A stretch of DNA of 64,000 nucleotides from Squalus acanthias (Eukaryota). The notes beneath the pieces were generated by a model. That model had not been told where the DNA came from. It saw nothing but the letters and a program-made list of their open reading frames with translations, and searched no databases. Each line of letters starts with the position of its first letter. Position 1 is the stretch's first letter. Shown here in pieces: positions 1,745 to 30,791 of this stretch. The position numbers and the translations under genes are program-made. The DNA is taken from the NCBI GenBank assembly GCA_030390025.1, contig JASTWF010000033.1, positions 622,001 to 686,000 on the forward strand. The letters are read 5' to 3'.

Positions 1745-2545
1745 CTGGAATGACAGGTGGCAAGTAAATTCGTGTCACACAAGTGCCCGGCAATGGTCAT
1801 CTTCAACAGCAGAGTCTAACCATCTTCGCATGACATTCAATGGCATAACCTTTGCCAAATCCCGCACCTTCAAAATCTTAGTGTCAGCATTGAGCAGAAC
1901 CTCTACTGAATAAGCCATATAAGTGCCGTGGCTACTAGAGCAGGATATAAACTAGGTACTCTGCGGCGAGTGCCTCAACTCCTTACTCCGCAAGGTTGCA
2001 CACGATCTACAAAACATAAGTCAGGAGCGTGTTGCAATTCTCTCAACTTTCCGGAATGGATGTAGCTCCAAAAACGCTCATTAAGCTCGAAACTGTCCAG
2101 GTCAAAGTCGTCCACTTGACCGGCACCCCTTACATTGGTATATACATGAACTCCCTCCACCACCAGACCACCGTGCCTGCAGTGTGTACTATCCACAGGA
2201 TGCACTGCAGCAGGTCGCCAATGTATCTTCAGAAGAACCTCCTGCACCCGCGACCTCTACCACCTGGAAGGACCGGGGCAGAGGCGCATGGGAACATCAT
2301 CTCCTCCAAATCACCCTTTAAGTTACTTGCCATGCAAAAATGGACATATCTCGCTATTCCTTCATTGTCTCTGGGATAAAATCCTGGAACTTCCTATCTA
2401 ACATAATTGTAGGAGCATCTTCACCGCAAGAACCGCAGCAATTCAACATGGTAGCTAACCACCACCTTCTCAAGGAATCAAGCGCTGGAAATAAATTTCG
2501 GCCTTTCTAGCGAAGCCTAATCCCGAGAATGAGAAAATAAAAATA
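1745..2545 (+). mobile_element. 3' end of Zenon-like LINE (ORF2 C-terminus plus 3' tail)
   Basis: ORF 2029-2379 (..SLHHQTTVPAVCTIHRMHCS..) followed by the tail CACCACCTTCTCAAGG..AATAAA..A-rich end, shared with the SINE at 45985-46417. Confidence 0.8.
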
Positions 2546-2974
2546 ATCACCCACAGACATACAGACACATACAGAGACGAACACAGATACACACACACTC
2601 ACACACACAGTCGCAAACACACAAACAGCTTTGCTAACAAATGAAGGTGTTTGCAGTAGGCTATTATCTGATAAAGAGAAGGCCATTCTGATGTAGAGTC
2701 TCTCTGCCACTGTCTCTATTTCTACCTCCTTCGGTATCTCTGTCTATCTCTGCGTTGCAGCCTTTCTTTTGTCTTCAACTGTCGCAACCTTTTTACGATA
2801 ATTCAGCATCGGAACACTGCCCTATGCATTATTTTAACTCCGCTCCATGAATCCGCGTTACACTTAAATCCAGTGTCATCACCAGCTTCAAGCTAAGCTC
2901 ATTGTCCAGAAGATGTAAAACCTTAAATCCCTCAGCTCTCTCCATCTTTTAGTTGCCATCCTTGGTTTACGCTC

Positions 2975-3210
2975 GTAGGTTCAAATCCCGCTCCATTGAC
3001 TTGAGCACCAATTCCAGGCTGGCAATTCTGGGCCCGACTGAGGAAGTGCTGCCCTGTCAGAGGTGACTTATTTCAGATAAAACGTTAAACAGAGTATCGT
3101 CTGCCCTCCCAGGTGTTCTATTTTGAGGAAAAACAGGAGAATTTCCCCGGTGCCCTGGTTAATATTTATCCCTCAACCAACATCGCTTAACCAGATTATC
3201 TGTTCACTAA
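2975..3210 (+). mobile_element. Deu-domain SINE (SacSINE1/AmnSINE-like), 5' part
   Basis: B-box-like GGTTCAAATCC, then core similar to the reverse complement of 7765-8200 (AATATTTATCCCTCAACCAACATC). Confidence 0.7.
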
Positions 3211-3239
3211 CTAATTACGAATATACTTTCCCTTAAGGA

Positions 3240-6200
3240 ATAAAAAACCCACGGGTAAAGTGGTCCAATCATAGCTAAAGAGACGTTAAAGTAGTATTCG
3301 ATTAAAGGAAGAGGCTTGTAATGTTGCCAAAACGAATATTAAGGCTAAGGATTGGGAGGATATTGGAGTTCAGCAAAGGATGACCAGGAAATTAAAGGTG
3401 GGAAATATGGAGATGGCAAATACACCGAATGAATATTTAGTATCAATCATTACAGTAGAGGACACTAAGAATATCCCAACACTTGACAAACACGGGCCTA
3501 TGGGGGGGGGGGGGGGGGAGCTAAACACGATCAAAATCACTAAGGAAGTGGTACTCGGTAAAATAATGGGACTCAAGGCAGATAAATCACCTGGACCTGA
3601 TGGCTTACATCCTAGGGTCTTGAGGGAAGTGGCGGTAGGGATTGTGGATGCATTGGTAATAATTTTCAAAAACTCCCTGGACTCAGCAAAGATCCCGGCA
3701 GACTGGAAAACTGCTAATGTAACACCCTTACTTAAAAAGGGCAGTAGACAGAAAGCTGGAAACTATAGACCGGTTAGTCTAACATCTGTGGTAAGTAAAA
3801 TTTTGGAGTCCATTATTAAGGAGACAGTAACGGGACATTTGGATAATTATAATTTAATAGGACAAAGTCAGCATGGCTCTATGAAGGGGAAGTCATGTTT
3901 GACAAATTTGCTGGAGGTATTTGAGGAAGTAACATAGAGGGTGGATAAAGGGGAACCAGTGGATGTGGTGTATGTAGACTTCCAAAAGGCATTTGACAAG
4001 GTGCCACACAAAAGATTATTGCTTAAGATAAAAAATCAAGGGATTGCGGGTAATATTCTGGCATGGATGAAGGATTGGCTATCTAAGAGAAGGCAGAGAG
4101 TTGGGATAAATGGTTCATTCTCGGACTGGCAATCAGTAACTAGTGGTGTTCCGCAGGTGTCAGTGCTGGGTCCCCAACGCTTTACAATCTATATTAACGA
4201 TTTGCAGGAGGGGACCGAGTGTAACATATCAAAGTTTGCAGATGATACTAAGATGGGACGGAAAGTAATGAGTGAGGAGGACATAAAAAATCTGCAAGGG
4301 GACATAGACAGGCTAAGTAAGTGGGCAGATTTGGCAGATGGAATACAATACTGGAAAGTGTGAGGTTATGCACTTCGGCAGGAAAAATAGTAGAGCAAGT
4401 TATTATCTTAAAGGCAAGAAATTGAAAAGTACTGAAGTACAAAGGGATCTGGGGGTCCTGGTGCACGAAACTCAAAAGGTTAGTGTGCAGGTGCAGCAAG
4501 TGAGTAAGAAGGCCAATGGAATGTTGGCTTTCATAGGGATAGAATATAAAAATAGGGAGGTATTGCTTCAGTTGTACAAGGTATTGGTGAGACCGCACCT
4601 GGAATACTGCATACAGTTTTGGTGTCCATACTTAAGAAAATACATACTTGCTCAAGAGTCAGTGCAAAGAAGGTTCACTCGGTAAATCCCGGAGATGAGG
4701 GGATGGACATATGAGGAGAGGTTGAGTAGATTGGGACTCTACTCATTGGAGTTCAGAAGAATGAGAGGCGATCTTATTGAAACATATAAGATTGTGAAGG
4801 GGTTGGAATCGGGTGGATGCGGGGAGGATGTTCCCGATGATGGGTGAAAATAGAACTAGGGGGCATAGTCTTAGAATAAGGGGCTGCTCTTTCAAAACTG
4901 AGATGAGAAGGAACTACTTCACTCAGAGGGTGGTAGGTCCATGTAATCTGCTGTCCCAAAAAGCTGTAGAAGCTACATCATTACATAACATTAAAATAGA
5001 AATAGACAGTTTCCTCGAAGTAAAGGGAATTAAGGGTTACGGGGAGCGGACAGGAATTTAGACATGAGTCCAGGTTCGGATTGGTCATGGCCCTGTGGGT
5101 AACGCAGCGGGCCCAGGGGCCGTGTAGCCTGATCCTGCTCCTATTTCGTGTGTCCACTTCTGTTAGGTTCAGAAGATGGTTCTGTGATAGTAGTATGGCG
5201 GTTGGGATCAGATCAGCCAGGGTCTTATTGAATGGCGGTGCAGGCTCGAGGGGCCAATTGGCCTACTCCTACTCCTATTTCTTATGTTCTTATGTTCTTA
5301 TGTTCTTATGAAGTTGATAAAGAGAAGGAAAAGAGAATATGAGAGTAAACAAGCAAGGGACTTAAAAACAGATTGTAGAAGGATCTATAGGTATGTAAAA
5401 TGAAAGAGATTTGCGAAAGTAAACGTGGGCCCCTTACAGGCAAGACAGGATAAATAATGAAGCAGAATAACGATTAGGCAGAATAATTTAAAAATACTTT
5501 GTATCTATCATCATGGAGCAGGACACAGAAAACATTCCGGAAATAATGAGGAGCCAATTGTCTATGTGAGAATGAGGAATTTAAATAAATTATTATTAAT
5601 AAAGAAATAGTACCTGATAAATTAATTGGAGTAAAAGCCGGCAAATCCCCTTGACATAATGACCTACATCGGTGGCTTTTAAAAGAATTGGCTACAGACA
5701 TAGTGGAGGCATTGGTTTTGATTTTCCAAAATTCCATAGATTCTGGAATGGTTCCCACGGATTGGAAGGTAATAAAATAACCCCAATATTTAATCAAGGA
5801 TTGAGAGAGAAAACGGGGAACTAGAGATCAGATAGCCTGACATCAGTAGTAGGGAAAATGCTGGAATATATTATTGAAGACGTGGTAACAGGGCACTTAG
5901 AAAATAATAATGTGATTGGGCAGAGTCAACACGGACTTATGAAAGGGAAATGGTGTTTGACAAATCTGTGAGAGTTTTTTGAATTTGTAACTAGCAGAAT
6001 AGATAAGGGGGAGCCAGTGGATGTGGTGTATTTGGATTTTCAGAAGGCATTCGATAACGTGCCACCCAAGAGGTTGTAAACAAAATTAGGGCTCATGGGA
6101 TTGGGGGTAATATACTAGCATGGATTGAGGATTGCTAAACGGACAGAATACAGAGAGTAGGAATAATTTTCGGGTTGCCAGGCTTTAACTAGTGGGGTAT

Positions 6201-7216
6201 CGTATGGATCGGTGCTTGGGTCTCAGCTGTTCACAATCTACATCAATAATTTGTATGAGGGGACCAAATGCAATATATCGAAGTTTGCTGAGGATATAAA
6301 GCTGGGTGGGAATTTAAGTTCTGAGGAGGATGCAAGGAGGCTTCCAGGGGATATCGACAGGCTAAGTGAATGGGCTAGATCATGGCTAATGGAATTTTAT
6401 GTGGAACAATTTGAAGTTATCCACTTTGGTAGGAAAAATAGAAAATCAGAATTTTTTTTTAACTTTTGAGAGATTGGGAAATGTTGGTGTTCAGAGGGAC
6501 CTGGGCGTTCTTGTATACGAAACACTGAAAGTTAACATGCAGGTACAGCAAGCAATTAGGAAAGCAAATGGTATGTTGGCCTTTATTAACAGGATCTGAG
6601 TATCAGAGTAAAGACGTTTTACTGCAATTATGTAGGGCCCTGGAGAGACCACACCTGGAATCTTGTGTACAGTTATGGTCGCCTTACCTAAGGTAGGATA
6701 TACTTGTCACAGTGTGAGTGCAACGAAGTTTCACCAGACTGGTTCCTGGGATGGTGGAATTGTCCTATGAGGAGAGATTGACTAGACTAGGTCTATATTC
6801 TCTAGAGTTTAGAAGAATGAGAGGTGATCTCAATCAAACATACAACATTCTTACAGAGCTTGACAGGTTAGATGCAGGGAGGCTGTTTCCCTAGCTGCTG
6901 AGTCTAGAACCAGGGTTCACAGACTCAGAATAAGGTGTCGGCCACTTAGGACTGAGATGAGGAGAAATTTCTTCACTCAGTGGGTAGTTAATATTTTGAA
7001 TTCTCTACCCCAGAGGGCTGTGAAGGTTCAGTCGTTGAGTATATCCAGATAGAGAAAGATATATATTTGACTATTAAGGGAATCAAGGGATATGGGGATA
7101 CTGCAGGTAAGTGGAGATGAGGTAGAATATCAGCCATGATGTTATTGAATGGCTGAGCAGGCTCGAAGGGCCAAATAGCCTACTCCTGCTCCTATTTCTT
7201 ATGTTGTTATGTGCTT
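3240..7216 (+). mobile_element. Older CR1 LINE (ORF2 linker, RT, 3' UTR) interrupted by a younger CR1
   Basis: The CR1 ORF2 sequence breaks at ~3388 (..CAAAGGATGACCAGGAA) and resumes at ~5310 (GAAGTTGATAAAGAG..). Decayed RT motifs ([12 protein letters not shown]) and a TTCTTATG-type tail at ~7195-7216. Confidence 0.85.
3388..5310 (+). mobile_element. 5'-truncated younger CR1 LINE (subfamily A)
   Basis: ORFs 3380-3937, 3941-4363 and 4338-4685 carry [28 protein letters not shown] and KFADD. Ends in (TTCTTATG)n. Near-identical to 27620-29530. Confidence 0.95.
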
Positions 7217-8722
7217 ATGGTTTACGGACAGAAAACAGAGAGTAGGAATAAAATGTTCATTATCTGGTGGGCAGGCTGTACCTTTGAGGTTACCGGATGG
7301 ATCTGTTCTTGGGCCTCAGCTATTAACAATCTGCATCAATGACTTAGACGAGGGGACGGAGTGTAATGTATCCAATTTGTTTGCGATACATTGCTAGGTC
7401 GGTACGTAAGTGATGAGGTGGAAGCAATGTGGCTACAAAGGGATACAGACAGCTTAACTAACTTGCCAAGAAAACGACAGATGTAACATCAGGTGTAGAA
7501 ATGTGAATTATCCACTTTGGTAGGAAAATAGAAAATCAGAAATTTTTATGTAGTGTGGGAGATTGGGAAATGTTGATATTCAGAGGAACCTGGGTGTCCT
7601 TGTGCATTATTCACAGATAGTTAACGTGCAGGTACAGCGAACAATTGGGAAAGCAAATGGTATATTCCCCTTATTAGAAAGGATTGGAGTATAAGAGGAA
7701 ATACGTCTTACTGCAATTATGCCAGGCCTTGGTGAGACCACACCTGGAGTACTTGGTGCAGTTTTCAAAGAAACATAAAGAAAGACCTGCACTTCTATAG
7801 CTCCATCCGGCCACCGGATGTCCCAACGCGTTTTACAGCCAATGAAGTACTTTTTGAATTGTAGTTACTGTTGCAAAGCAAGCTCCCACAAACAGGAAGG
7901 TGATAATGCCCAGATATTTTTATATGTTAATTGGGGGATAAATCTTGGCTAGGTCATCGGAGATAACTCCCCTGCTGATCATCGAAATAGTGCCGTAGGA
8001 TATTTTAGTTTACCTGGGAGATTAGACGGGGTCTCGGTTTAACGTCTTATCTTAAATATGGCACCTCCGACAGCTCAGCGCTCCCTCAGTACTGCACTGA
8101 TGTGTCAGCCTAGATTCGGTGCTCACGTCTCTGGAGTGGGTGCAATGAACCCCCAACCTTCTGACTCAGAGGTAAGATTGATACCAACTGAGTCACAGCT
8201 GGCAATGTTTTGATCTTCTAACCTAAGGAAGGATACAGTTGCCTTAGAGAGAGTGCAACAAAGGTTCATTGCATTCATTCCTGGGATGGAGGAAATTGTC
8301 CCCTGAGGAGAGATTGCGTAGACTAGGACTGTATTCCCTAGAATTTAGAAGAATGAGACGTGATCCCATTGAAACATATAAAATACTTAATGGGCAAGAC
8401 AGAGTAGAAGCTGGGAGGTTGTTTCCCCTGGCTGGGGAGTCTAGAACTAGCGGGTCACAGTCTCAGAATAAGCGGTCGGCCATTATGGACTGAGTTGAGC
8501 AGACATTTCTTTTTTCAAAAGGTCGTGATTCTTTACAATTCTCTACCTCAGAGAGCTATGGATAGGTAGTCGTTGAATATATTCAAGGTAGAGATCGATA
8601 AATGTTTTGTGAATCATGGAGTCCATGAATATGGGCGGGAAGGTGGAGTTTAGGTAGAAGATCAGCCAGGATTTTATTGAGTGGCAGAGCTGGCTTGAAG
8701 GACCGAATGTTCTGACTCTGAT
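7217..8722 (+). mobile_element. Old CR1 LINE 3' part, interrupted by a SINE
   Basis: Degenerate RT/C-terminal motifs ([19 protein letters not shown]) and a decayed 3' UTR. Confidence 0.8.
7765..8200 (-). mobile_element. Deu-domain SINE, near full length
   Basis: Reverse complement gives a tRNA-like head (CTCTGAGTCAGAAGGTTGGGGGTTCA), Deu core and L2-like tail (..CATTGGCTGTAAAACGCGTTGGGACATCC..). Inserted in CR1. Confidence 0.85.
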
Positions 8723-8726
8723 TTCC

Positions 8727-8855
8727 GCTGTGCTCAAACTGGCTGCTGCGTTTCCGCTCATTACATCTGTTATTAATGTTCTTCATTGGCTGTGAAGCAC
8801 TTTCGGACGTCCTGAGGTCGTGAAATGCGCCATAAAATGGAAAGCCTTTCTTCCT
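8727..8855 (+). mobile_element. Deu-domain SINE, 3' tail; probable continuation of 2975-3210
   Basis: GCTGTGCTCAAACTGGCTGCTGCGTTTCC..CATTGGCTGTGAAGCACTTTCGGACGTCCTGAGG tail. Confidence 0.7.
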
Positions 8856-9106
8856 TTCAACTGTTGATTCTTTCTTTATATCTGTGATTGCTTCTTTCTG
8901 TATTTCTATATCTTCCTTCACACTCAACATACTTTAAAAAACTAATTGAACGTCACTGCTTATTATGTTGCCTTGTCTCCTTCCTTACTGTTTATAACCA
9001 ATGAGCAGTGCTCCAGAATCAGCGCATGCCCTGCACCCAGTTTTTTCAATTTATAATAGTAACAATAATAATCTTATAAACGGTGAAATATTTTCATTCC
9101 ATCAAG

Positions 9107-9212
9107 GAATTGTTAAGGGCGGATCTGCTCATCACTGGATCGGGATGACGGACGAGAAAAGCGAAGACACCTGGCAATGGGTGGATGGGACAGGCCAGCT
9201 CTCTGAACCTCA
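9107..9212 (+). pseudogene. Isolated C-type lectin domain exon (WIG..D...E..W.WVDG), probably frameshifted
   Basis: Translates ..VKGGSAHHWIGMTDEKSEDTWQWVDGTGQLSEP, the hallmark middle CTLD exon. Acceptor TTTTCATTCCATCAAG and donor GTGAGT at 9213. Length is 106 nt versus the 3n+2 expected for a phase 0-2 exon. Confidence 0.75.
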
Positions 9213-9266
9213 GTGAGTACCGAGAGGTGTGAGTGAATAGAGGGGATGCAGAACAATATTATAAGG

Positions 9267-10525
9267 TGTAGATCGAAAAATCCGCCAGAAGCTCGAACAG
9301 AGCCCTAAAGGGCGTGATTTTTGGACCTTACATACAAACTTGGGAGGATGGGACCTAAGTGAAGTGATTTGATGTAAAAACCTCAGTTTTGGAAAGATTA
9401 GGGAAGAAAAAACCCTGAGGAAACTGACTTTCGAATCTTACTGTTGGGAGATACACCTTTCACAGACACAAGACAAGCTGCGGAGGGGCGTGGCCAGGCA
9501 GTGAATAGATTTGGGTATTGGGGCCCAATCAAGCTGTCTGGGAATTGTTTACACGGCAAATCCTGCCAAGGTGGAAGAGACAAAGCAAAAACTCACACAC
9601 ACATCGAAATATGAATAATACAAGAACACCTTTTGAAATTCCCAGGCCCAAACAGGATACCAGAAGCCTGAAATCAATAAAACATTTAGTACTTCATCAA
9701 AAACCAATCAACCAGGTATCCACAGAACAGATTTAAAAGCCCGCCAAAAGACCTAGGACAATAGGGTTGAGATTTGGCGCGTAGATAAGGCTGTGTTTAA
9801 ATCGGAAAACGATCAGGACATGTTTAACACTGAGCTAAAGCCATCGGTACTGGCAAGCCCGCCAAAACTAGACAATGGACTAAGCAAGGTTCACTTGCAA
9901 CCTAAAGGAATCCGTTTTAGTAAGGGGAATTTTGGGTGTGAAATAGAAACGGTATAATTGAAAGCCTGTCCCATAACTTCTCTCTTTTTTCGGACTCGCT
10001 GACTACGCTGACACAGCTCTCTCCCTGCTCCAGCAAAAACCACCACAAGCCACGAGGAGGAAGGCCAGAAAACAGACCAGCACGCAAGAAGAAACCAGAG
10101 CGACTGCCTCAGTGACCATCAGACACCTCGCAGCAACAAGGGTCTTACGGAGTCTTTTAAACAAAAGACTCTAAAATCCTGTCAAGGATTCGTTGGTGAG
10201 CATTATCCCTGATCTTCTGAAACCAAAATCCTAGCTAGATAGTGGGATCTTTGGGATGGATAAGGTTTTGTTTGATATATTGCCATTCTCCTTCGCTTGT
10301 ACCGTGTGCTCCCCAATCTGTGTTTAAGTAATAAGTGTGTTTCAAATTTGTTACCTTTTTATTTTAATAAAGTAACATTCTTTCATCAGAGACCTGTTGT
10401 CTACTGCAATTTTGTTCACAACCCCTAAATAAGTCCAACATCTAGGAACAAGAGCGGTGTGCGAGCGATTCGAACCGCTCACTGAGTCAAAAAGCGAAGG
10501 CTGACCCCATTACCACCCACTTACA
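9267..10525 (+). repeat. 5' LTR (1259 bp, TGTA...TACA)
   Basis: Direct-repeat homology with 19985-21145. TG..CA termini, TATA-like TATAATT at ~9953, AATAAA at ~10366. Confidence 0.9.
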
Positions 10526-10528
10526 TAA

Positions 10529-12351
10529 ATGGCGACCGCGGCAGGACTTTGGCAAAAGGGTTGTGGAGCAGTAAATGCTGGATTTGAGGAGAGAACAAAA
10601 ATGGAAGAGAGGATGTCATCCTATGTACATAAAAAAGTAAATATCACCAAGAAATGGGTCCTCAGTCTGTTGCATGCTGAACGTCCTATGGACGCTGCAG
10701 CTGCATGGACTGAGAGCAAGGAATACAATAAGTCTGTGGAGAAAGCCATATTGTTGGTGTGCTCCCAGAAACAAATACAGCTTATGGGGAAGCGAATTCA
10801 GGCTCTCACAGAAGAGCTAAATGAAGAAAGCCAACTGTCCCGTTCCAGAGCTATAGCAGGGGATAGGTTGTTAGCAGAGCTCGGCACAAAAGATCAGGAA
10901 CAGTCACAGATGCTGGAGGAACACCGTGCCTGTAAGGGATACCTCCAGTGTCAGTCTACCGAGGTCAAACGTAGTGAACTGGCATTGCGGGAAGATAACA
11001 CCCACCTTGCCAAGCAATTAAGGGAACTCACAGTGAAGTTAAACGATGTTCAGGCAGCCTACAGAGTAGCCAGTACAAGGGAGCTTGAGGTAGGGGACCA
11101 CGGCCCCTGTCAGAAGCAGATTGAGAGTCTGAACCTTGCTCTGTCCAAGACAAAAGGCATGTTGTGCCTGATAAGCCCGGGTGCGGCCAAGGTAGACCTG
11201 GAGGAGCAAGGAGAGACTGTTCGACCACCACCTGTGGCGCCAAGGAGAAGCTTGGTTAGGCAGCAGGAGGGGCAGACAATCTGTGAGGCTGACAGGGAGT
11301 GCACACCAGCACATGTGGCGCCGAGTTTTGACTCGGTCTGGCAGCAGGGAGAGGGGGGCGAACCGATGCAGGAGTAGTCGGAGCCAGGGCCAATGTGCCC
11401 AGCACGACAGCAAAAATTCGGCCCGCCCGCCGCTGGTGGAGGTCAGGGACCCCTTGAAAGTCAATTCTTGGCTCCCCACGGTACACAACAGCTTAGGGCT
11501 ATGGTAAGCCACCTGAGTAAACTTATCGAAAAGGAAGACCCCTCAGTCCACTTCATGGAGGTGGAGCCGGCAGCAGGCATCAACGAATGTGACGATGCCG
11601 AGATGGCAAAAATGCTCCTGTCCTCATTAGATGGCAAACTATACCAGTCCCTCTCTACTGAGAGCAAGAGAGGACAGAACGGGTATGCGGCCGTCAGAGA
11701 GGAAGCTTTAGAGGCCATGGGAATGAATGAGGGAAGTCCTTTCTCCCGGGTGAAGAAAACAGTGCAGCTCGCAGGGGAGACCCCACAGGCTTTCGCAGAC
11801 AGGATGTGGCCGGTGTACAGGGGTGCTTGTAATGCGGCTCTCGACAGGGCTAACCTGAACAGGGACGTGCTGGCCCACTGCTCTGCAGCCTAGTTGCAAA
11901 CAGCTTGCCACGATTCAAAGCCAAGGCTGAGCTTTGGTTTGACCCAGGAGATCCCCGGGTAACCGGGGAGGCAGTTGTCAGGCAACTGACCCGAGCCTAC
12001 CGGAACGGTAGTGGAGCTGAAGACACCCCACTGAAAGGGAAGGTGCATCAGATAAAGACCAGTCAGGATAGGAAGGAGTGGCACCAGGAAGGTGGTAAAC
12101 CTTCCGGCATGAAGCGTAGCTGCTTCGGGTGCGGGAAGACTGGGTACTGGAGAAAGGACTTTAGAAATCCCTGGAAGGATAGCCTAGCAAAGAAGTCCCC
12201 AACTCCTGCCCCAAAAGTAGAGGCACCGACCTCTTCCCCCACACTGGACATAATAGTAGCAGCCATCAGAGTCCTGTTTGGTGACCCAGGGAAGGTGGCT
12301 ATAGCCACTGGCGCTCAAATACCATCTGCCCCACCCAACCCAGAGGCATGA
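10529..12351 (+). pseudogene. gag: gag (coiled-coil N-terminal half, capsid-like region, degenerate CCHC knuckle); disrupted
   Basis: ORFs 10529-11377 and 11393-11893 are in one frame, split by TAG, then a frameshift to 11905-12351. Knuckle CFGCGKTGYWRKDF (His and last Cys mutated). True start may be ATG 10601. Confidence 0.85.
10530..10546 (+). promoter_or_regulatory. Primer binding site, tRNA-Ser-like (TGGCGACCGCGGCAGGA)
   Basis: Starts with TGG 4 nt after the LTR end. The TGGCG....GGCAGGA pattern resembles the complement of vertebrate tRNA-Ser 3' ends; exact isoacceptor not assignable. Confidence 0.7.
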
Positions 12352-15300
12352 CTGGAGCTAGCACAGCCGGTCTACCTGTGTTCCCTCGAGTATGATGCCT
12401 GGAAGAGACCGCATGTCAAGATGGAGGTAGAAAAGGTAGAAGGGACCTAATTGTTAGACACAGGAGCTTCGAGCACCCTCATTTATTCAGATAACCCATC
12501 CACTTCACTTCTGTCTAACGGGGTCCCGTGCAGTCTAATGGGATTCATAGGTAACGAGCAGGCTGGCTCATTCTCCATCCCGTTGTCCATTCATTTGGGA
12601 AAGCTCCACACCAAGTGGACCTGTGTCCTAATGAAGTGGGAGCAAGAAGGGAAGGGGATACTTGGGGCCGACTTTATCACAGGCCACAGGATTTTAGTGG
12701 ATTTAACGAACCACTGTCTATGGGGAGCATGTGCCCAAAAGGGTAGTGAGGTAGCAGTCATCCCGGAGGCACAAGGCAAGGGGACCTTGTGCACAGTAAA
12801 ACCAAAGGAGGGTTAGGACGTCGAACTCATGGTCAGTAACACTCCAATGGAGTACCAAGCATTTGTGCAGGAAAACCTCGCAGCATTTGCCACTCACAAG
12901 CACGACTGTAGGCGGGTAACCGGGGTCGAGGTCAGTGTGAGTGGGGACCCCATGAACAGCACACAAAAGCAGTATAACTTCCCCAGGGAAGCTGAGACAG
13001 ACTTGGAAACGGCTTTGACTTCTTTAGTCAAGCAGGTGGTATTGAGACCTATAGTTACCCACGTGAACTCCCCACTGTGGCCGGTTAGAAAACCAGACAA
13101 CTCCTGGAGGGTCACAGTGGACTTTCGAGTACTCAATCGAAACATCCCCGCCTGTGCCCCCACGGTTGCAGCCGTAGCCGACCTCATTGCAAGTATTCCA
13201 GCATCTGCGAACACCTTTACAGTGCTGGATATTTTCAATGGGTTCTGGTCCATCCCTCTGAGGAGAGAGGATCAGTACAAGTTCGCCTTTACATTTAAAG
13301 GCCAACAGTACACATGGAACTGTATGCCCCAGGGCTTCCACAACAGCCCAAGCATTTTTCACCAATGTATGGCGAATTGGTTGAAGGGCTTCAGCAGGCC
13401 CCATCAGCTGGTCCAGTATGTGGACGACCTACTCCTCTTTACCGATGAGGGAGAGGAACATGGTCCCCTTCTGCCAGAACTGCTGGAACTGTTCAGGCAA
13501 GAGGGTTTTAATGTAAACTCCAGGAAGGCACAGAGTGGCCAGCGGGAAGTCAAATTCCTGGGCTGGCAGTTCGAGCAGGGGAGAGGGCCATTGACAAAGC
13601 TAGAAGGGAAGCAGTTCAGGAGTTACCAGCCCCCAACACAGTTACAGGAGTAAGGTATTTTCTTGGGCTAACTGGGTACTGCAGAGATTTCATTGAGGAT
13701 TACGCAGCCACAGCAGCCCCTCTGCTCCGACTCCTACACAATGGAGTGGAGTGGGTTTGGGATGAGTGTTGCGAGGCTGCCTTAGTGAAACTCAAGAGAG
13801 ATCTGCAGACCGCACCGGCTCTAGGGGCCATTGATGGAGGGGAAGAGTTTTTCCTGTAGGTAGTAGCAGCCAGTGGGGACAGTCTGAGTGCAGTGCTGCT
13901 CCAAGAGAGGCATGGCAAGCTGAAACCAGTGGATTACTCCTCCAGAATACTCACTGATGTGGAGAGGAGCTACTCCAACGGTGAGAGGCACCTCCTAGCC
14001 ACTCACTGTGCTGTGAAAAGATCATTGATCTTCACAGGCACCTCTCCCATCACACTCCTCAATCACCGCACGCCCACCCAGATGCACTTGGATGGGAGAA
14101 TTAAAGATGGGACAGTGAGCAGTGCCCGCATTGTTCGCTGGACCCTGCTTCTCTCACAAATGGATCAGAGGGTAAAAGGTCTCTGCGTGCCAAAGCTCGC
14201 AGCCAACATGATTTACTCAGGGACAGCCCACCGGTGTTCCGTTGAAGGGGTATGGGAAGTCAACATAGGTTTTCGTGCTGAAATACACCCCACAGGCCAC
14301 AAAATCTATGTGGACGGTTCAAGTACAGTATCAGTTGGAAAGCGACTCACAGGGTGTGGGATTTATGACCCAGAGGCAGGCATTGCTCTGGCAATGAAGC
14401 TCCCCAGCACCATGAGTGCCCAGCAGGCTGAACTGTCTGCGGTGGTGTATGTAGTCACACACCCCGAGGAATTCCCTACCCCATACACGATTTGCTCGGA
14501 CAGCATGTTCACCTCCAATTCGTGTACAGAGTACCTGGCCATCTGGTCCCGTCGTGGATAAACCTCCGCTGATGGGAGACCCCTGCCCGTCAAGCCTCTG
14601 TTGGAGGAAATCATGAGGGCAGTAGGGGAGGAAGGTTGGGTCTACATCCAAAAGGTGAATGCCCATTCCAAGGTAGAGCCCCGCGCAGAGGGCAATCACC
14701 AAGCCGACATGCTGGTCAAAGAGGGCGCCAGTACAGGCACGTTGTGGGATCCATATGGATCAAACCCGGTAGCAGCAATCAGAGGTAGAGGAGGGACCCA
14801 AGGGAGTGCAGGGGTAGCATTGACTCCGGACCTAAAGACGGTCCAGGCACAGGATCCCATCCTAAAAACTGTTCTGGAAACGCTGGCTAGAGGGGAGAAG
14901 GTAGAGGGCCCAAACGGCGCAGCAGCCATCACCCACAAAGAAGGCATGCTGTTCAGAGGGTAAAAATGGGTAGTGCCGCAGCAGCACCGAAGGGAATTCC
15001 TCCAACTGGCCCATGAGGGTCCAGGAGCGGGGCATCCCGGGCCTGAGACCACCTGGCAGCGGGTGGAACAGGCAGGATGGTGGCCAGGACTGAGGGAGGA
15101 TGTCAGCGAGTTCTGTGCAGGCTGTCTGGTGTGTGCTACTAACAACCCTGACCCCCAGAAAAGAAAGGTATCTATGGGACACATCAGGAGGGTAGAGGAA
15201 CCATGGTAGTCGATCCAGGTCGACTACATCGGGCCCCTACCCACCACTCAGCGAGGCTACAAATATTGCCTAGTCCTGGTGGATGTGTTCTCAAAGTGGG

Positions 15301-17151
15301 TGGAAGCTTTTCCATGTCGAACAGCTACCGCTTTGGGTACAGCCAGGATCCTGGTCAGGGAAGTGTTCTCACGATGGGGGCTCCCAGAGTATGTGGAGTC
15401 AGACCAGGGGATCACTTTACTGGGCAGGTCATGCAAGAGACCCTCAGGGTACGCGGCATAGAAGGGAAATGGCACGTCGCCCACAACCCACAGTCATCAG
15501 GGATTGTGGAGCGTTTAAACCGTACCATCAAAGAAAGGCTGCAAAAGGAGATGGGAGTCTCACCCAAAAAGTGGGTACAAGCCTTACCGTTGGTCCTAAT
15601 GGGGATCCGGGCCAGCCAGTCAAAAAGCACGGGGTATTCCCCACACCAGCTCATGACTGGCAGGATTATGCGGAGTCCCACGCATGTGCTAGCCCATGTG
15701 CTCACGGAAGGGCATCTCAGGGAGGTGATGTCGAAGTTTGACTTCCGATTAAAGACTCTTGTAGACAATATCGTCAAAGTAGGCTTTTTATTATATTTTA
15801 CTTGCAAGGAGACTGCAACCATAGCCCAATTAGCTATGATGACAGACTGCCGAATCACAGAAAATGGAGTATTCTTATACAGTATAATATCACATGACAT
15901 GTTGTTTAAGGTAAGCTAAGTTAACAATTAGAAAAAACACATTAGAAATGCCTTACAATGAGACTAGCTAATCTCTATAAAATGGAGTCTATCTATTTTA
16001 CTTCTCTCACCAAGGTCAAGGCGCCTGGTTTGTTTACTTTACTAGCCCTTGGTTATCTCAATATTAAGCCTGTTTTCTTTTGTGCAGGCAGTCTTTTGCT
16101 GACAGCATAGTCTAAGAATTTAAAGTTATTTTCAGAAAAGAACATAACAATGCATTTTTTCCCTTTTCCACACAAGTCAGAGTCGGCCATTTTATTCGTT
16201 TAAATTCAAGGACACCATTTTGTCCGAGACAAAAACTGCACTTCCACAGTGAACCAGGACAGATTCGTCAGGAATCTGTTGGAATAACTTAAACAGGTCC
16301 ACTGGCAGGCTGCGAGTAACATGGGAAAACAGCATCGGGGTAACCGATTGCTGCTGGAACCCCGCAAGCACCACGAGTGGGAGGTTGGAGATCAGGTCAT
16401 GGTGAGAAATTTTGCCCGGGTAGGCGGATTCGAACCATTGTACATGGTGCCCTACAACATTGTAGACAAGGCAAGCCCCATGGTCTATGCCCTAAAGATG
16501 CCGCGCCGTACAAAGTGGCTTCACATCAACCAATGCAAACTGTTTAAACCTAAAAGGGAACAGCCGGCAAAGGTGGACCGCCCCCTAGTTAGAAATCTTC
16601 AGCCAGCAGCAGCTGTGGCAGACGCACAAGCTGCAGTGGGAGGAACAGTGTGTTGTCTTACAGGAGAGGTCACTCCACCGATTATGTGGGACTCAAGCAC
16701 ACCCCCAGTGGCCAGAGCCCTAAGAAGGTCTCCCCGCACACCACAGCAAAGGCTGCTGTGCCCACAGTTGTATCTGTTTAGAGGGTCCCATCCAAAGACG
16801 GTTGCAACCCGAAGAAGAGCGCCCAAGAGCACGGAGCGTTCTAAAGTTGGGGATTCCCAGCCTACAGCCTCCAACCGTGAGGGTTTCACAGGAGAGGTAG
16901 TACTGTGCTAAGAGACAGAGAAGGGTCCCCCGCCTGCAGCCTCAGGCTGGGAGGAGCCCACAGATATGAACGAGGGCGCTGCAGCCGCACCACAGGGGGT
17001 AGTGTGCTGCAGCACAGGACGCAGCTGGGATTTTAAGATACCCCCAGCGGTTTTGAGGAAGGCCTTCTGGGTCCGGCGGTACATGCCGCACTACACCCAG
17101 GTGTACAATCCATCCAGAGGCCACATAAGGCAGAGACTAAACAGGATTTAA
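12352..17151 (+). pseudogene. pol: pol: protease-RT-tether RNase H-RNase H-integrase; disrupted by stops, frameshifts and a nested solo LTR
   Basis: LLDTGAS at 12451, YVDD at 13417-13428, YVDGS/SAQQAEL/SDS/KVNAH/GNHQAD at 14307-14710, H..H..C..C at ~15012-15135, D..D..E core at ~15220-15510, GPY/F-type module at 16380-16545. Confidence 0.92.
15729..16248 (-). mobile_element. Solo LTR of an unrelated LTR element inserted in integrase
   Basis: 520 bp with ends TGTCGAAG...CTTCCACA and 4-bp TSD GTGA (15725-15728, 16249-16252). Minus-strand AATAAA at 15787-15792. Removing it restores the integrase frame (..LREV-NQDRFVRNLL..). Confidence 0.85.
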
Positions 17152-17351: not shown

Positions 17352-19701
17352 ATGAAAAGGTTTCTGCTCCTGCTCGCCCTGGTAGGGGTGAGCATCGGTG
17401 ACCGAGGTGACGTGGAGGACTCCCACATCTATGGGCGCTCAGGAGTGACAGCACCAGTCGTCACCGCAGTGGGTGGCGAGCGGGGAGTGGAGGAGCTCGC
17501 CATCTACTTCCACGAGGGAAGGTGGCCAGGGTGGCTGGGGTCCAACTCTACTAAATACTCCAACCAGCCCGGGTTCACGTACGGGGAGGACTCCCTCCCA
17601 TGCCCCAGAATACAGGTCGTTGACACAAGGGTCAGTTTCACCGAGTGGAAGCGTGTGTGCCTTACCTGTAAGGGACGAATTCCCCTGAATAGGTGGTGGT
17701 GGCTCAGGAAGCTGAGCAGGGACGCAGGGGACCATACAGCCGACTGGGAAAGATTAGGGAACGACACCCACTGGACAATCACAGTGACCCAAGGAGGAGT
17801 AAGTGTTTGTTGGGATAAGTGGTGGTAGTCGGATCAGGGAGTCTATGTTTGTATGTGGGGATCAGAGGAAGCCTGCCCCACAGGGGTATCCATCATCTTC
17901 TACAGCCAATGGCAAGATGCCGGGGAGGGGATAGGGTGGGTTTCTAGCCTGCATGCGTGTGTGTTCCCACACATTCCGGTCCCAGTTAATGCCACTGAAC
18001 TCGTGGCACACACCCGAAAGCCCCTACCCACGAACCAGGTGCCGAAAATCCTGGAAGAAAAGTGCCCTACCACCACCAAGGGACCAGGGAATGGGTTAGT
18101 CCTAGTACCAACCGAAAAGGTAATATACCAAGTGGTACACTATGCAGTAGCTTCAGTAATATTAAACCTTACCGAGGTATATTACCTGAGTGGTGTCGTA
18201 AGGAGATGGAGCTGCTGTACCAGGCCCTGCTGAAGGAAATGTTTATGAAATTTTAAGAATTTCATTTTGCCAATATACACAAGGTAGAGCTATACAGAAT
18301 ACACCCTGAGAACCCTATGGGCACGGGTAAACAAAGAATTGGAGCCTGGAATGATGATTTCACTGACTAAAGTACAGGGTCCTCTGTAATAAATAGCCTG
18401 GATGACATGGAATTACAGACACAGATAAATGGTTTAAAAACTCAGGTAAGAAAGTTCCAGAAGGATGGGAACACAGTGGTAGGCTCAGAGCTACATGAGG
18501 ACCAAGCTATGCCGGTTCATTTAAAGGAAATAATTGCAGAATTGGAAAGACATGCCAAAACAGTAAACGCACTCATACGGGAGGATAGGAATGCATCGGA
18601 TCAGGCTGCACAGAATGAGGTGTGTGTGCTGTACGGGGCATGGTTGCTGGGCGAGGGCCGTAGCAACCTGGAGGATTTAAAGCAAGGTTTAGTCCCCTCC
18701 TGGATCAGCAACAAGCACCTTGCAGCCCTCCACCCGTTTAGTAATTCGCTGAGCCCATGCCAATTTCGTCTAGCCTCTGAAGCCTACCCTGTCCCAATAG
18801 ATTGTGGGCGTTCAAATCACACTATCATGGGATTAGTAGTGAGAATGCCGGTCATGAGTGGGACACCCCTACCCATACCGGGATTCAGGGTGGAGAACAT
18901 TGGAGTCATTCAAGGGGGTGCACACATCCGTTTTACAGCGGTCCCACCTTATGTCATAAAGTGGGAGCACGCCATGACAGGTACTGACCTCTCCGGGTGC
19001 CGGAGACGGGGTTCACACATAATACTGTGTCCCCAGCACTTGAACGCCTATTGGAAACACAATGCTGGTTCAGAGCTGCTGACGCGAAACATATAAATTG
19101 TACCATGGAGGTGATGGCACACGGTCATGTTTCCCCACAGGTAGCATAAATAGGGGGTGGGACATATTGTGTTACCACAGGTGCGCCCCACTACCAGCAT
19201 GGACACTTCTGGTGTCCGGTAAGTGACAGCAGTTTCAGCTTTAAACCCGAGGCAGAAGTTCAAGTGGCCCAGGAACGGATTGTCCACATTCCTGAAGCCG
19301 CCACTGTTCCCCTCACTGTAACAGAAAACATCAACAACCTGCAAAAGTATGTGACTTACTTTGGATATAAAATTCCCCCTCTACCCGAACATCTTACCAT
19401 CCTACTTAAAGCTGTAGAGATTTCACAAAAACATTTCTACACCCTGGAACAGAAAACAGTTGAAATAGGGGCAGAGATTTTGGATATAGTAGTTCCACCC
19501 TGGTGGGATATTTTCGAGAATATAGAGGTGCCCTCCTGGATCAGGATGGCTTCCCATCTTTTGGTGGTCTGCCAGCTCGGGATAGTTCTCTACCTGCAGC
19601 ACAACGTGCAGAGGAAGGGACGGGAGCTCCGCTCCAGACACGAAGGGACTTGGGAAGTGCATCAAAATAAAGGCTATGGCCAGGGATGGAACGAACCTTG
19701 A
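17352..19701 (+). pseudogene. env: env: signal peptide, Ig-like module, F-like class I fusion ectodomain, TM anchor; disrupted
   Basis: MKRFLLLLALVGVSIG signal peptide, N-glycosylation sequons, degenerate basic cleavage site (GKQRI/GAWND, ~18325-18350), heptad region MELQTQINGLKTQVRKF, Cys-rich DLSGC..ILC..C..C..YCVTT, TM WIRMASHLLVVCQLGIVLYL. Stops at 17826, 18254, 18368 and 19147; frameshifts at ~18178 and ~19048. Confidence 0.85.
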
Positions 19702-19984: not shown

Positions 19985-21145
19985 TGTAGGCTTCGCAAAA
20001 TCCCCCAGAAATTCGAACAGAACCCTAAGTGAAGTGATTTTAAAGATCGTAAGAAAAAACCTGAGGAAACGGATTTTTTGAATCTTACTGTTGGGAGAGA
20101 CACCTTACACAGACACAAGCTGCGAGGGGCGTGGCCAGGCAGTGAACAGATCAAGCTGTCTGGGATTTGGTTACACTTCAAATCCTACCAAGGTGCAAGA
20201 GACAAAGCAACAACTCACAAACACATTAAATCACCAGGTGCAAACAGGATGCTGGAAATCTAAAAACGAGTCCTGACAATAAAACTTCCAGTACACAGTT
20301 TCATAGCCAGTATCCCATCAAAAAACCATCAGCCAAAGTATCGACCAGAGCAGTTAAGAAAGCCCGCCAAAAGACCTAGGACAATAGGGTGGAGATTTGG
20401 CGCGTAGATAAGGCAGTGTTAGAATCGGAAAACGATCAAGGCATGTTTAACACTGAGCAAAAGCCATCAGAACTGGCAAGGCCGCCAAAACTAGACAATT
20501 GGACTAAGCAAGGTTCATTTGCAACCTGAAGTAATCCGTTTTAGTAAGGGTTTTTTGGGCGCGAAAAAAAACAGTGTAATTTGAAAGCCTGTGCCATAAT
20601 TTCTCCCTCTTTCGGACTGGCTGACCACGCGGACAGAGCTCTCTCCCTGCTCCAACAAAACCTACCACAAGCCACGAGGAAGAAGGCCAGAAAACTGACC
20701 AGCACGCAAGAAGAAACCAGAGCGCCTGCCTCAGTGACCATCGGACACCTCGCAGCAACAAGGGCCTTACGGAGTCTTTTAAACAAAAGACTCTAATATC
20801 CTGTCAAGGATTCGTTGGTGAGCATTATCCCTGATCTCCTGAACCCAAAAACCTAGCCAGATAGTGGGATCTTTGGGAGCGATAAGGTTTTGTTTGATAT
20901 ATTGTCATTTCCCTCGCTTGTACCGTGTGCTCCCCATCTGTGTTTAAGTAATAAGTGTATTTCAAGTTTGATAACTTTTTCTTTTCATAAAGTCACATTC
21001 TTTCATCAGAAGCTGTCGTTTACTGCAATTTTGTTCACAACCCCTCAATAAGTCCAAAGACCAGGAACCAGAGGGGTGTGGGAGCGATTCGAACCGCTAA
21101 CTGTGTCAGAAAGCAAAGGCTGACCCCATTAAGATACCTCTTACA
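19985..21145 (+). repeat. 3' LTR (1161 bp, TGTA...TACA)
   Basis: Homologous to 9267-10525. Distal two-thirds are colinear; the U3 part differs by block indels. Confidence 0.9.
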
Positions 21146-23160
21146 ACAGCTGACATTAAAGGAAATCCAAAGCTCTTCTATAGACATATTAACAGTAAAA
21201 GGTTTGTCAGAGCAGCATTGGGGCCAAAATGGAGAACTATCGGTGGAGGCAGAGATAGTAAATTAGTACTTTTTATTGGTGTTTGCCAAGAAAGAGGAGT
21301 TTACCAAAGCTATGGTATTCAGGAGGCTGCTGGGATACTGGATGAGAAAATATAGATAAAGAATAAGTGCTAGTAAGTCTGGCGGTACTTAAAACACATA
21401 AGTCTCATAGTTGGGTCCCCAACTGTTTACAATCTATATTAACGATTTAAGGAGGGGACCGAGTGTAACATATCAAAGTTTGCAGATGATACAAAGATGG
21501 GAGGAAAACTAGAAAGTGAGGAGGACATAAAAAAACTACAAGGGGATATAGACAGACTGGGTGAGTGGGCGGAGATTTGGCAGATGCAATACAATATTGG
21601 AAAATGTGAGGTTATGCAACTTGGCAGGAAAAATCAAAGAGCAAGTTATTATCTTAATGGCGAGAAACTGGAAAGGACTGCAGTACAAAGGGATCTGGGG
21701 GTCCTAGTGCAAGAAAATCAAAAAGTTAGTATGCAGCTGCAGCAGGTGATCAAGAAGGCCAACGGAATGTTGGCTTTTATTGCTAGTGGGATAGATTATA
21801 AAAACAGGGAGGTATTGCTGCAGTTATATAAGGTATTGGTGGGACCGCACCTGGAATACTGCATCCAGTTTTCGTGTCCATACTTAAGAAAATACATACT
21901 TGCTCTCGAGGCAGTACAAAGAAGGTACACTCCGTTAATCCCGGGGATGAGGGGGTGGACATATGAGCAGAGGTTGAGTAGATTGGGACTCTACTCATTG
22001 GAGTTCAGAAGAATGAGAGGCGATCTAATTGAAACATATAAGATTGTGAAGGGGCTTGATCGGGTGGATGCGGTGAGGATGTTCCCAATGATGGGTGAAA
22101 CTAGAACTGGGGGGCATAATCTTAGAATAAGGGGCTGCTCTTTCAAAACTGAGATGAGGAGAAACTTCTTCACTCAGAGGGTAGTAGGTCTGTGGAATTT
22201 GCTACCCCTGGAAGCTGTGGAAGCTACATCATTAAATACATTTAAAACAGAAATAGATAGTTTCCTTGAGGTAAAGGGAATTAGGGGTTACGGTGAGCGG
22301 GCAGGAAATTGGACATGAGGCTGAGTTCGGATCGGTCAGGGCCCTGTGCGTGGCGGAGCGGGCCCAGGGGCTGAGTGGCCGGGTCCTGCTCCTACTTATT
22401 GTGTTCTTTAGTCTTGAGGTTAGGATCAGATCAGCCATGATCTCATTGAATGGCGGAGCAGGCTCGAGGGGCCGATTGGCCTACTCCTGCTCCTATTTCT
22501 TATGCTCTTGTGTTCTTATAAGTCTCATGGTCCGGATTGGATGCATCCTAGGTTGTTCTGGGAAGTAAGGGTAGAAATTCTAGAGGATACAGGAGTGGTG
22601 TCAAAGCTCTGGGGGATAGCAAATGTTGCACCTTGAAATTACAGGCCAGTCAGTTAAACAGCGGTGGTGAGGAAGCATTATAACAATAATCCGGGAGAAA
22701 AGTAACAGACAGTTAAACTAGCATAGACTAATAAAGGAGAGAAAACAGGGATATTTTAGGAGCAAATCGTGTTTGAATAAGTTGATTCCGTTTGTGTAAG
22801 AGTTAACAGAAAGGGTCGATGAGGGCATGTTCACTTGATATTGTGTATATGGACTTCCAAAACACATAGATGAGGTACTAAATGTGTACTTTCATCTGTC
22901 TTTACCAAGGAAACAAATGCTGCCAAAGTCAGTGGGTGGTAATGATCCAGAATGCTGTCCCTGAAAGGGTGGTGGAGGCAGATTGAATCGTGGCTTTCAA
23001 AAGGGAATTGGATGAGGACCTGAAAGGAAAAAAAAAAACAGGGCTGCAGAGAATGGGCGGGGGAGTGGGACCAGCTGAGGTGCTCTTGCAGAGAGCCGAC
23101 ACGTGATCGACGTGCCGAATTGGCCTCCTTCCGTGCAGTAACGATTCTGTGATTCTATGA
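21146..23160 (+). mobile_element. Mosaic of old CR1 fragments hosting a younger insertion
   Basis: Begins mid-ORF2 (DIKGNPKLFYRHINSK). KS.GPD..HPR and VYMDFQ remnants, and a (ATTCTATG)-type tail near 23145-23160. Confidence 0.7.
21409..22517 (+). mobile_element. 5'-truncated CR1 (subfamily A variant) with 11-bp TSD ATAAGTCTCAT
   Basis: ORF 21497-22318 is the CR1 RT C-terminus. TSD at 21398-21408 and 22518-22528. Confidence 0.92.
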
Positions 23161-24283: not shown

Positions 24284-24785
24284 AGTGAGGGAATGGGAGT
24301 GAGATTTACAGAGTGAGGGCATGGGAGTGAGATTAACAGAGTGAGGGCATGGGAGTGAGAATTAGAGATTGAGGGAATGGTAGTTAGATTTACAGAGTGA
24401 GGGATGGGAGTGAGGTTTACAGAGTGAGGGAATGGGAGTGAGATTTACAGAGTGAGGGATGGGAGTGAGATTTACAGAGTGAGGGGATGGGAGTGAGATT
24501 ACAGAGTGAGGGAGTGGGAGTGAGATTTACAGAGTGAGGGAATGGGAGTTAGATTTACGGAGTGAGGGAATGGGAGTGAGATTTACAGAGTGAGGGGATG
24601 AGAGTGAGATTTACAGAGTGAGGGATTGGGAGTGAGATGTACAGAGTGAGGGAATGGGAGTGAGTTTTACAGAGTGAGGGAATGGGAGTGAGATTTACAG
24701 AGTGCGGGAGTGGCAGTGAGATTTATAGAGAGAGAAAATGGGAGTGAGATTTACAGAGTGAGGGAATGGGAGTGAGGTTTACAGA
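24284..24785. repeat. 28-bp minisatellite (GAGTGAGGGAATGGGAGTGAGATTTACA)n; continues at 29533-30053 with a remnant at 30810-30865
   Basis: Direct tandem units. The array is split by a full-length CR1 and a MITE. Confidence 0.95.
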
Positions 24786-25365
24786 GTATAAAAAGACCAG
24801 TATGAGTGCGAGCCAGCACTCTCTGCTGACTTTGGGTGAGTGGGAGTAGTTCTTTAATTGTTAGTTCTCTTTAAATCATTCTTGATAAGAGTACTTAAGC
24901 AATTTAAGTGAAGGGGAAAAGTTAACTATTTGGGATTCTGTTGGTTTAGGAAGAGTAAAACAAGGTTACACTGCAGTAGGAGTAAATTGGCACAGCAGGC
25001 AGTGGAAACCAGTTTTCTAATCAATCAGCAGGGGTGACTCATTTGGCTGTAAACAAACAAACAGTATAAAAAGACCAGTGCTATTGCGAGCCAGCACTGA
25101 GTGCAAGTCAGCAGAGAGTGCTGAGTTTGGGTAAGTGGGAGTTCGGGTGAGTGGAGCGTAGGGTGCTCTTTTCAAACTTTAACTCTGTGGGTTGTAGTTA
25201 ATAAGGCCTTTCTGGTGCAGAGAGTCTGTTGGTAAACCAATTAACTGGTGTAATTTAGAGGGATTGATTTAAATTAAATCCAATTAATTAGAGGGGATAC
25301 TAGCATCTATAATCGGGCAGAGAGTGTCCATAACTAACAATAAAAAAAATAATTAATTACATAGA

Positions 25366-29302: not shown

Positions 29303-30053
29303 GTCTAGGTTCGGATCGGTCATGGCCCTCTGGGTAGCGTAGCGGGCCCAGGGGCCGTGTAGCCTGATCCTGCTCCTATTTCGTGTGTCCAATTCTGTTA
29401 GGTTCAGGAGATGGTTCTGTGATAGTAGATTGGAGGTTAGGATCAGATCAGCCATGATCTTATTGAATGGCGGAGCAGGCTCGAGGGGTCAATTGGCCTA
29501 TTCCTGCTCTTATTTCTTATGTTCTTATGTTTAGTGAGGGAATGGGAGTGAGATTTACAGAGTGAGGGCATGGGAGTGAGATTAACAGAGTGAGGGCATG
29601 GGAGTGAGAATTAGAGATTGAGGGAATGGTAGTTAGATTTACAGAGTGAGGGGATGAGAGTGAGGTTTACAGAGTGAGGGAATGGGAGTGAGATTTACAG
29701 AGTGAGGGGATGGGAGTTAGATTTACAGAGTGAGGGGATGGGAGTGAGGTTTACAGAGTGAGGGCATGGGAGTCAGATTTACAGAGTGAGGGCATGGGTG
29801 TGAGAATTACGGATTGAGGGAATGGGAGTGAGAATTACGGATTGAGGGAATGGGAGTGAGAATTGCAGATTGAGGGAAATTTTTTGAGATTTACAGAGTG
29901 AGGGAATGGGAGTGAGATTTACAGATTGAGGGAATGGGAGTGGGATTTACAGAGTGAGGGAATGGGAGTGATATTTGCTGAGTGATAGAACGGGAGTGAG
30001 ATTTTGACAGTGAGAGAATGCGATTGCGAGTGAGACTCACCGAGTGAGAGAAT

Positions 30054-30791
30054 GGCGCAGAAATTGATCTCGCTCTGTTCCCGCGGGGGTAAGGCTTCCC
30101 CGCGCTCTCTCACTCCGCTTGTGCTTTTTCAGATCCAGCTGGCACGAACTTGATGTTCCAGACATCAGCTGGGCAGTGCTTGCGTATCCCACCGGCGTAG
30201 TGAATTCGTGCGAGCTGTGGGATCACGTGACTCAGTTAGAGCCAATGGCAGCACACCATCTTCCATTCATAAGTTTCACTTACGTGCTGTGAAATCTATG
30301 AATCTTACACCCCCCAAAATAACAGCTAAACCTCAATTAATTGTTTTAAAAAAACCATCACATTAATAAAATAAGTATAGTTAAATAAATTAACCATTTT
30401 AAATAAAAAATAAAATTTTTGAAAAATTTTAAATCTTTTAAAAAGTTATAAAAATAAACTTACCTGTCTTTAAAGTCTCTAAAAAGATATACCTGTTAAA
30501 AAAAATTCAAAAAAATTCTTAATTCACTACTTACCTTGTTAAAAGTGGGTCTTACTCCTTTTTCCATTTCTAAAATCTTCCGTACTTACCTGCGCGTCCA
30601 AAGCATGAAGTGCACAGCGTGCGCGCAGCCTGTAGCGCGCACGCGATGCACCGAGGAACCGCCCCCTTTTCAAAAGACCAAGTGCCGGTTTTCAGCGCAT
30701 GCGCAGGGCATGCAGAAAACCGGCAATTGGAGAGAGAATACGCGAGAGTACGCAGTGCGTACTCTCGCGTCGCGGGATGAATTTTTGGCCC
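30054..30791. mobile_element. PIF/Harbinger-like MITE, 3-bp TSD AAT
   Basis: Ends GGCGCAGAAATT...AATTTTTGGCCC with AAT on both sides. A highly similar copy starts at 63461. Confidence 0.85.

Follow-up and report, generated by a model that had tools for sequence, protein, structure and literature searches.

A predicted immunoglobulin-like head on a foamy-like F-type fusion core in an endogenous retroviral envelope of Squalus acanthias

F-type envelope proteins (Env) have already been described for foamy viruses and lokiretroviruses. According to the available text of PMC11468914, foamy virus Env shares the fold of the paramyxovirus and pneumovirus fusion protein F, a scaffold that accepts binding modules either N-terminally, as in coronaviruses, or as an insert, as in foamy viruses. 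Among the lokiretroviral Env shown in PMC7947760 (21 of 23), 20 run from the leader straight into the core without a head, the remaining one being a fragment, and no lokiretrovirus was recorded in the 6 chondrichthyan genomes of its supplement. Endogenous retroviruses (ERVs) resembling snakehead retrovirus (SnRV) are known from the elephant shark, a chimaera (CmiERV lineage I; available text of PMC4422223). Immunoglobulin (Ig) heads have been reported elsewhere: the receptor-binding domain (RBD) in murine and feline leukemia viruses (MLV and FeLV) is a modified V-type Ig (IgV) domain followed by a proline-rich region, Ig heads on proline-rich linkers and their transfer between lineages are described for gamma-type Env, and the alpha-like Env-Dbi captured a SIRP-derived IgV domain (available text of bioRxiv 10.1101/2024.03.17.585361). 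Here we describe the env gene of a provirus located in a 64,000-nucleotide stretch of Squalus acanthias DNA (assembly GCA_030390025.1, contig JASTWF010000033.1, positions 622,001 to 686,000, forward strand), hereafter termed the window. The original prediction for this locus knew of no retroviral envelope with an Ig domain fused to an F-like fusogen; Ig heads as such do have retroviral parallels in the MLV, FeLV and SIRP-derived examples.

We favor, with some reserve, a reading in which this envelope consisted of a signal peptide, an Ig-type head, a stalk rich in Pro and Thr, and a foamy/F-type core, the head being an exchangeable cassette that bound a receptor. The env frame opens with an ATG at 17352 and is organized as follows.

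17352..17399, forward strand: env signal peptide, a short hydrophobic N-terminus recognized by inspection
17400..17600, forward strand: conserved N-terminal extension of the head (residues 17-83), kept in the skate and sawshark homologues, pLDDT mostly below 50
17601..17906, forward strand: predicted Ig-like domain (residues 84-185), with Cys at 17667, Trp at 17694-17702, Cys at 17850 and a TAG at 17826
17907..18062, forward strand: linker with Cys203, then the Pro/Thr-rich stalk (9 of the 32 residues 206-237 are Pro or Thr)
18063..19701, forward strand: predicted F-type fusion core, opening with C-P-x-x-x-x-G-P-x-x-G-L and matching foamy Env by profile

The signature residues on which the Ig proposal was founded are all present as described. 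Cys106 (codon 17667) is followed 9-11 residues later by Trp115-117, and the D-Q-G-V-Y-V-C motif ends in Cys167 (codon 17850), all in a single frame across the TAG, which is env codon 159 and lies inside the domain. The spacing of 61 residues between the candidate B- and F-strand cysteines falls within the 55-75 of Ig domains, the tryptophans stand where a C-strand Trp is found after the first Cys, and the tyrosine corner D-x-G-x-Y-x-C is recognizable, with Glu for Asp in most copies. The domain does lie downstream of the signal peptide, as had been stated, but not directly, about 67 conserved residues separating the two. Additional conserved cysteines (codons 17601, 17658, 17808 and 17874) may form two extra disulfides, Cys103-Cys153 and Cys84-Cys175, judging from the Ig strand order, and the stalk carries an N-glycan sequon at residue 213. 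A frameshift artefact as the source of the head was rejected: 19 of the 20 closest copies have no indel relative to the window either upstream of or inside the domain. The combined pattern (C, W 9-16 residues later, [DE]xGxYxC 55-75 later), which was picked post hoc and serves as a rough guide only, is found a single time in the window when all six frames are read, at the env head; as a measure of chance, 1 of 100 codon-shuffled windows contained it, as did 61 of 100,000 shuffles of the residues in a 293-residue stretch.

The proposed Ig-like beta-sandwich was predicted for the head both by a structure model, which places a strand over Trp115-117, and by structure search. The best structural matches were TREM-1/2, NKp44, TLT-1, NITR11, CD300 and FcmR at 10-18% identity, with rows within 1 Z unit counted as tied, so that no single family is favored. 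The Pfam Ig profile aligns over positions 2-75 of its 78. Several results weigh against an Ig fold: the model is weak and the Z scores are middling, the Pfam Ig_3 score (11-20 bits) stays below the gathering cut-off of 30, sequence searches of the PDB with the head gave no match, and Foldseek against PDB and viral libraries gave nothing at E≤0.001. On balance, the head is very probably a diverged V/I-set-like domain of the Ig superfamily (IgSF), as judged from the predicted fold.

The proposal that this element itself had captured the domain fared less well, since elements of skate and sawshark carry the domain too and sequence searches gave no donor in a host. Neither the 49 matches of the whole-env search (1.84 billion representatives) nor the 9 matches of the head profile included a host Ig protein, and the suggested identification of a closest host IgSF protein yielded none; viral contigs contained no relative. 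Recent capture from a host gene was rejected as unshown, and we infer a remote host-IgSF origin of the head. Zinc-finger, Niban, cadherin and F-box fusions were also considered as donors and discarded as gene models with spliced-in provirus pieces. The shark models concerned (P0003, P0004, P0005 and P0035; zinc finger, Niban, cadherin and FBXO15) include env pieces and are probably annotation chimeras, exonisation being the other possibility.

Conservation of the head was assessed in 50 loci of this genome, comprising the best 20 among 40 DNA matches that were scored plus the best 30 among 150 such protein matches, the window included and assembly duplicates possibly among them. All 50 copies keep Cys84, Cys103, Cys106, Trp115-117, Cys153, Gly163 and Cys203, and 48 keep Tyr165, Cys167 and Cys175; the key Cys, Trp, Gly and Tyr residues were thus conserved in the sibling copies, as the original prediction required. 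The Asp of the motif was the exception: residue 161 is Asp in 6 copies, Glu in 42 and another residue in 2, which makes Asp untypical for the family in this genome. The full D-x-G-x-Y-x-C is found in the window, in skate and in the relatives P0010 and P0066, while sawshark has Glu for Asp. Named close homologues came from skate, sawshark and whale shark. A first look at the genome gave 1,666-11,727 candidates per query (not copy numbers) in several subfamilies, and many family members have long open frames across the env region.

The env copy in the window, a member of this large family, is dead: four stops (17826, 18254, 18368 and 19147) interrupt it, and its frame shifts twice (near 18182 and near 19065). 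Of the 50 copies, 6 carry the stop at codon 159, the window among them. Since six copies (L001-L006) share this identical stop as well as an identical frameshift, the stop-bearing sub-lineage multiplied after env broke, via intracellular copying, a helper or segmental duplication. We estimated dN/dS over the 102-codon domain core of 8 copies, with dS near saturation in distant pairs. Values between subfamilies were 0.08-0.17 (16 pairs without the window) and 0.14-0.23 (5 pairs with the window), whereas those of the window against its own subfamily were 0.95 and 1.23. The low values between subfamilies and the values near 1 of the window against its own subfamily indicate that the head domain was under purifying selection during viral replication and has decayed neutrally since.

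The core contains a basic cleavage site near 18329-18340, a heptad region, a Cys-rich region and a transmembrane segment near 19546-19596 (from the hydropathy of a sibling copy). When a profile of 34 relatives was compared to solved structures, the only matches at E<0.01 were foamy Env, 8RM1 (1.1e-4, spanning profile positions 204-380) and 8RM0 (6e-4), and paramyxovirus F was not among the 15 rows of this search. A Pfam search did not recognize the core, one relative gave a weak Baculo_F match (E=0.0011), and a complete natural env modelled from its sequence alone had a pLDDT of 33, too low for the ectodomain DI-DII-DIII. The F-like fusogen that had been proposed is retained here as a predicted class Ib F-type core, assigned by way of homology to foamy virus Env; no direct connection with paramyxovirus F emerged.

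Relatives from the whole-env search (49 matches) share this core behind different fronts. Besides the window-type Ig head, they include eroded Ig-like heads (P0013, L054, L057, L058 and L061), an Ig-like C-W-C head in the frogs Pelodytes (P0019) and Mantella (P0038, 16 cluster members), Cys-rich heads without an Ig motif (P0012 and P0024), another type in L070, and an env without any head (P0039). P0030 (Logan) has a V-set-like head (Pfam E=0.045) without the canonical cysteines, by eye of CD2/CEACAM type. The start of the core gave an unrooted tree (22 rows, 231 columns, the frameshifted row L052 disregarded) in which the window clade (99/100) falls inside a 100/99 branch with families having non-Ig heads. 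The other Ig-like families lie apart from it, and P0030 and P0039 form a sister pair. Because the core tree groups differing heads and places headless P0039 beside P0030, at least two replacements or losses of heads took place. Such an unrooted tree, with heads that are not significantly alike, would agree with a single gain of Ig as well as with several. The eroded Ig-like heads of this genome and of Chiloscyllium are interrelated (phmmer E 1e-5 to 4e-10, several pairs), and a W-x-x-[WF]-W-x-x-x-x-G stretch is shared by Ig-like heads by eye. Common ancestry of all Ig-like heads, likely by eye, was not supported by hhalign (probability below 5% in all 15 pairs) or by Pfam, in which L054, L057, L061, P0013, P0019 and P0038 had heads without an Ig match (the L070 row, on the wrong strand, was disregarded).

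DNA comparison of six sister-lineage loci gave the clearest view of head exchange. Upstream of the head, L066, L067 and L070 have 92.6-94.2% identity, and downstream of it 93.4-95.5%, but they share nothing over the head itself. The head is most likely a cassette, exchangeable by recombination at the stalk. These three loci have unrelated signal peptides and heads, 0.43-0.8 kb long, and the heads are Cys-rich without an Ig motif by eye; L069, L071 and L072 have the L070-type head at least in part.

From its position and from precedent, the head probably bound a receptor. In the proposed mechanism, the head of the exogenous virus would bind a receptor on the host cell, the stalk would give it reach, the precursor would be cleaved at its basic site, and membrane fusion would fall to the F-type core; exchange of heads at the stalk would change tropism. 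It is unlikely that the Ig head instead served as a decoy for, or modulator of, immunity, as a mimic of a receptor or ligand of the TREM/CD300/NITR type, while the F core attached. The identity of the best structural matches would suit such a role, the existence of headless envelopes (P0039 and the 20 lokiretroviral Env) suggests that the core is able to work alone, and the SIRP-like RBD retains CD47-contact residues (available text of bioRxiv 10.1101/2024.03.17.585361). However, the tied rows single out no family, and the unrelated non-Ig heads filling the slot in sister families fit a tropism module better than one mimicry. Slightly less probable still is a structural role of the head, as a cap, a shield or a trigger of fusion, in which it stabilized the prefusion trimer without host binding. 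The strong purifying selection and the many conserved Trp and Cys, those of the extension (residues 17-83) included, would agree with it, as would the foamy Env RBD, which likewise holds the prefusion state (available text of PMC11468914), but cores with 93-95% DNA identity carry entirely unrelated heads, and the long stalk would speak against a tight fixed interface. The least probable alternative, another small viral beta-sandwich with an Ig-like Cys/Trp pattern by convergence, could account for the weak scores, the missing sequence link to host Ig proteins and the low hhalign values of other families' heads, but motif, spacing, strand order, Pfam alignment and structure search agree on one fold, and UniRef labels the relative P0013 an 'Ig-like domain-containing protein'. 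A receptor-binding Ig-type cassette on an F-type core thus remains the preferred reading.

The remainder of the provirus is arranged as follows (LTR, long terminal repeat; RT, reverse transcriptase).

9350..10527, forward strand: 5' LTR, approximate ends (blastn match of 9405-10513 to 20052-21132, 83.8% including gaps)
10530..10547, forward strand: primer-binding site (PBS), position from sequence
10529..12351, forward strand: gag, fragmented, from open reading frames; near 12121 a degenerate CCHC knuckle was read by eye
12451..16500, forward strand: pol, fragmented, with protease, RT, tether RNase H, second RNase H and integrase by Pfam
19985..21132, forward strand: 3' LTR, approximate ends, preceded by a polypurine tract, from its blastn match to the 5' LTR

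Pfam found no gag family in the gag pieces, while pol matched gag-asp_proteas (E=0.002), RVT_1 (3e-33), RT_RNaseH (4e-12), RNase_H (9e-9) and, weakly, rve_3/SH3. The PBS, which we take to be of the arginine-tRNA type, would fit SnRV, which uses an Arg-tRNA primer. Against PDB structures, RT scored 124 bits with foamy virus, 88 with MLV and 79 with Ty3, the best match being foamy PR-RT (protease-RT); its motifs, compared by eye, resemble the SnRV row of the PMC7947760 alignment more closely than those of Loki, foamy or gamma viruses. Dual RNase H is common to all retroviruses, hence not diagnostic for a lokiretrovirus, and an F-related Env with a basic cleavage site is common to foamy viruses and lokiretroviruses. 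Lokiretrovirus identity was dropped in view of the negative result for these viruses in the 6 chondrichthyan genomes, their 20 headless Env, the RT ranking and the SnRV-like RT motifs. The element is best regarded as an SnRV-like (class III) ERV of cartilaginous fish, an assignment that, taken jointly with the Ig head, the F-type core and the receptor-binding cassette, is reasonably probable. The LTRs differ at 111 of 1079 aligned bases (about 10% divergence) and have termini unlike each other, in contrast to the 96-99% identity of env to sibling copies, and may reflect recombination of the provirus or conversion of an LTR; a target-site duplication was not found. Elsewhere in the window, tandem arrays with units of 28, 67, 48 and 30 bp occupy 24387-24910, 29415-30134, 54749-55958, 62173-62604 and 39256-39712, and there are several LINE copies (e.g., 21443-22318, by eye of CR1/L2 type).

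The short signal peptide, the remnant of a Gag knuckle and the presumed arginine-type PBS are unlike those of foamy viruses. The foamy Env gp130 (8RM0/8RM1) is alike in carrying its own binding module on a class Ib F scaffold; its RBD, however, is a 327-residue insert (217-543) of novel fold before the cleavage site (available text of PMC11468914). Here the corresponding slot, which follows the HRC helix and precedes the cleavage site, has only about 25-40 residues and holds no RBD; the additional domain sits at the N-terminus and is predicted to be Ig-like. The lokiretroviruses (PMC7947760) share dual RNase H, an F-related Env and, by eye, the core start G-P-x-x-G-[IL]-V-L, but differ in their RT motifs and in the headless Env. 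In the group of snakehead retrovirus and the SnRV-like ERVs (clade Huo, PMC6001957; CmiERV lineage I, PMC4422223; available text of both), snakehead retrovirus is alike in RT motifs by eye, and no description of an SnRV Env fold or Ig head was found in the open-access text. The word 'immunoglobulin' is absent from the main text of PMC7947760, PMC9040795, PMC12440569, PMC13709493 and bioRxiv 2023.10.26.564294, the last of which defers its vertebrate analysis to a separate report, and literature searches, which covered mostly open-access papers, gave no report of an F-type or SnRV-like Env that carries an Ig head.

If correct, our reading would tie the little-studied SnRV-like Env to those of foamy viruses and lokiretroviruses, which bears on the origin of retroviral Env. 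It would be a retroviral case of an N-terminal binding module, with an Ig fold, on a class Ib fusogen, with genomic evidence of heads swapped between near-identical proviruses, and the small soluble head domains would be useful for finding receptors of cartilaginous-fish retroviruses. More tentatively, SnRV-like viruses of sharks, rays and amphibians may have an F-type fusogen whose N-terminal slot was loaded repeatedly and independently with host IgSF domains, and with non-Ig modules, a modularity like that of the coronavirus spike; taken with the Env of foamy viruses and lokiretroviruses, the F-type envelope would then be a candidate ancestral retroviral Env.

Similar in the arrangement of the head are the gamma-type Env (MLV/FeLV RBD-C, Env-Pb1) and Env-Dbi, which likewise have a signal peptide, an Ig head, a proline-rich linker, transferable heads and extra disulfides; the gamma-type cores, however, are SU/TM rather than F-type, and for the SIRP-like head of Env-Dbi a BLAST alignment with the host donor exists (available text of bioRxiv 10.1101/2024.03.17.585361), whereas the head here has no detectable donor. 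The coronavirus spike, class Ib, has an N-terminal receptor module on an F-like scaffold and is an architectural parallel only (available text of PMC11468914). The separate parts each have a precedent in these systems, and the combination of an Ig head with an F-type retroviral Env would be what is new.
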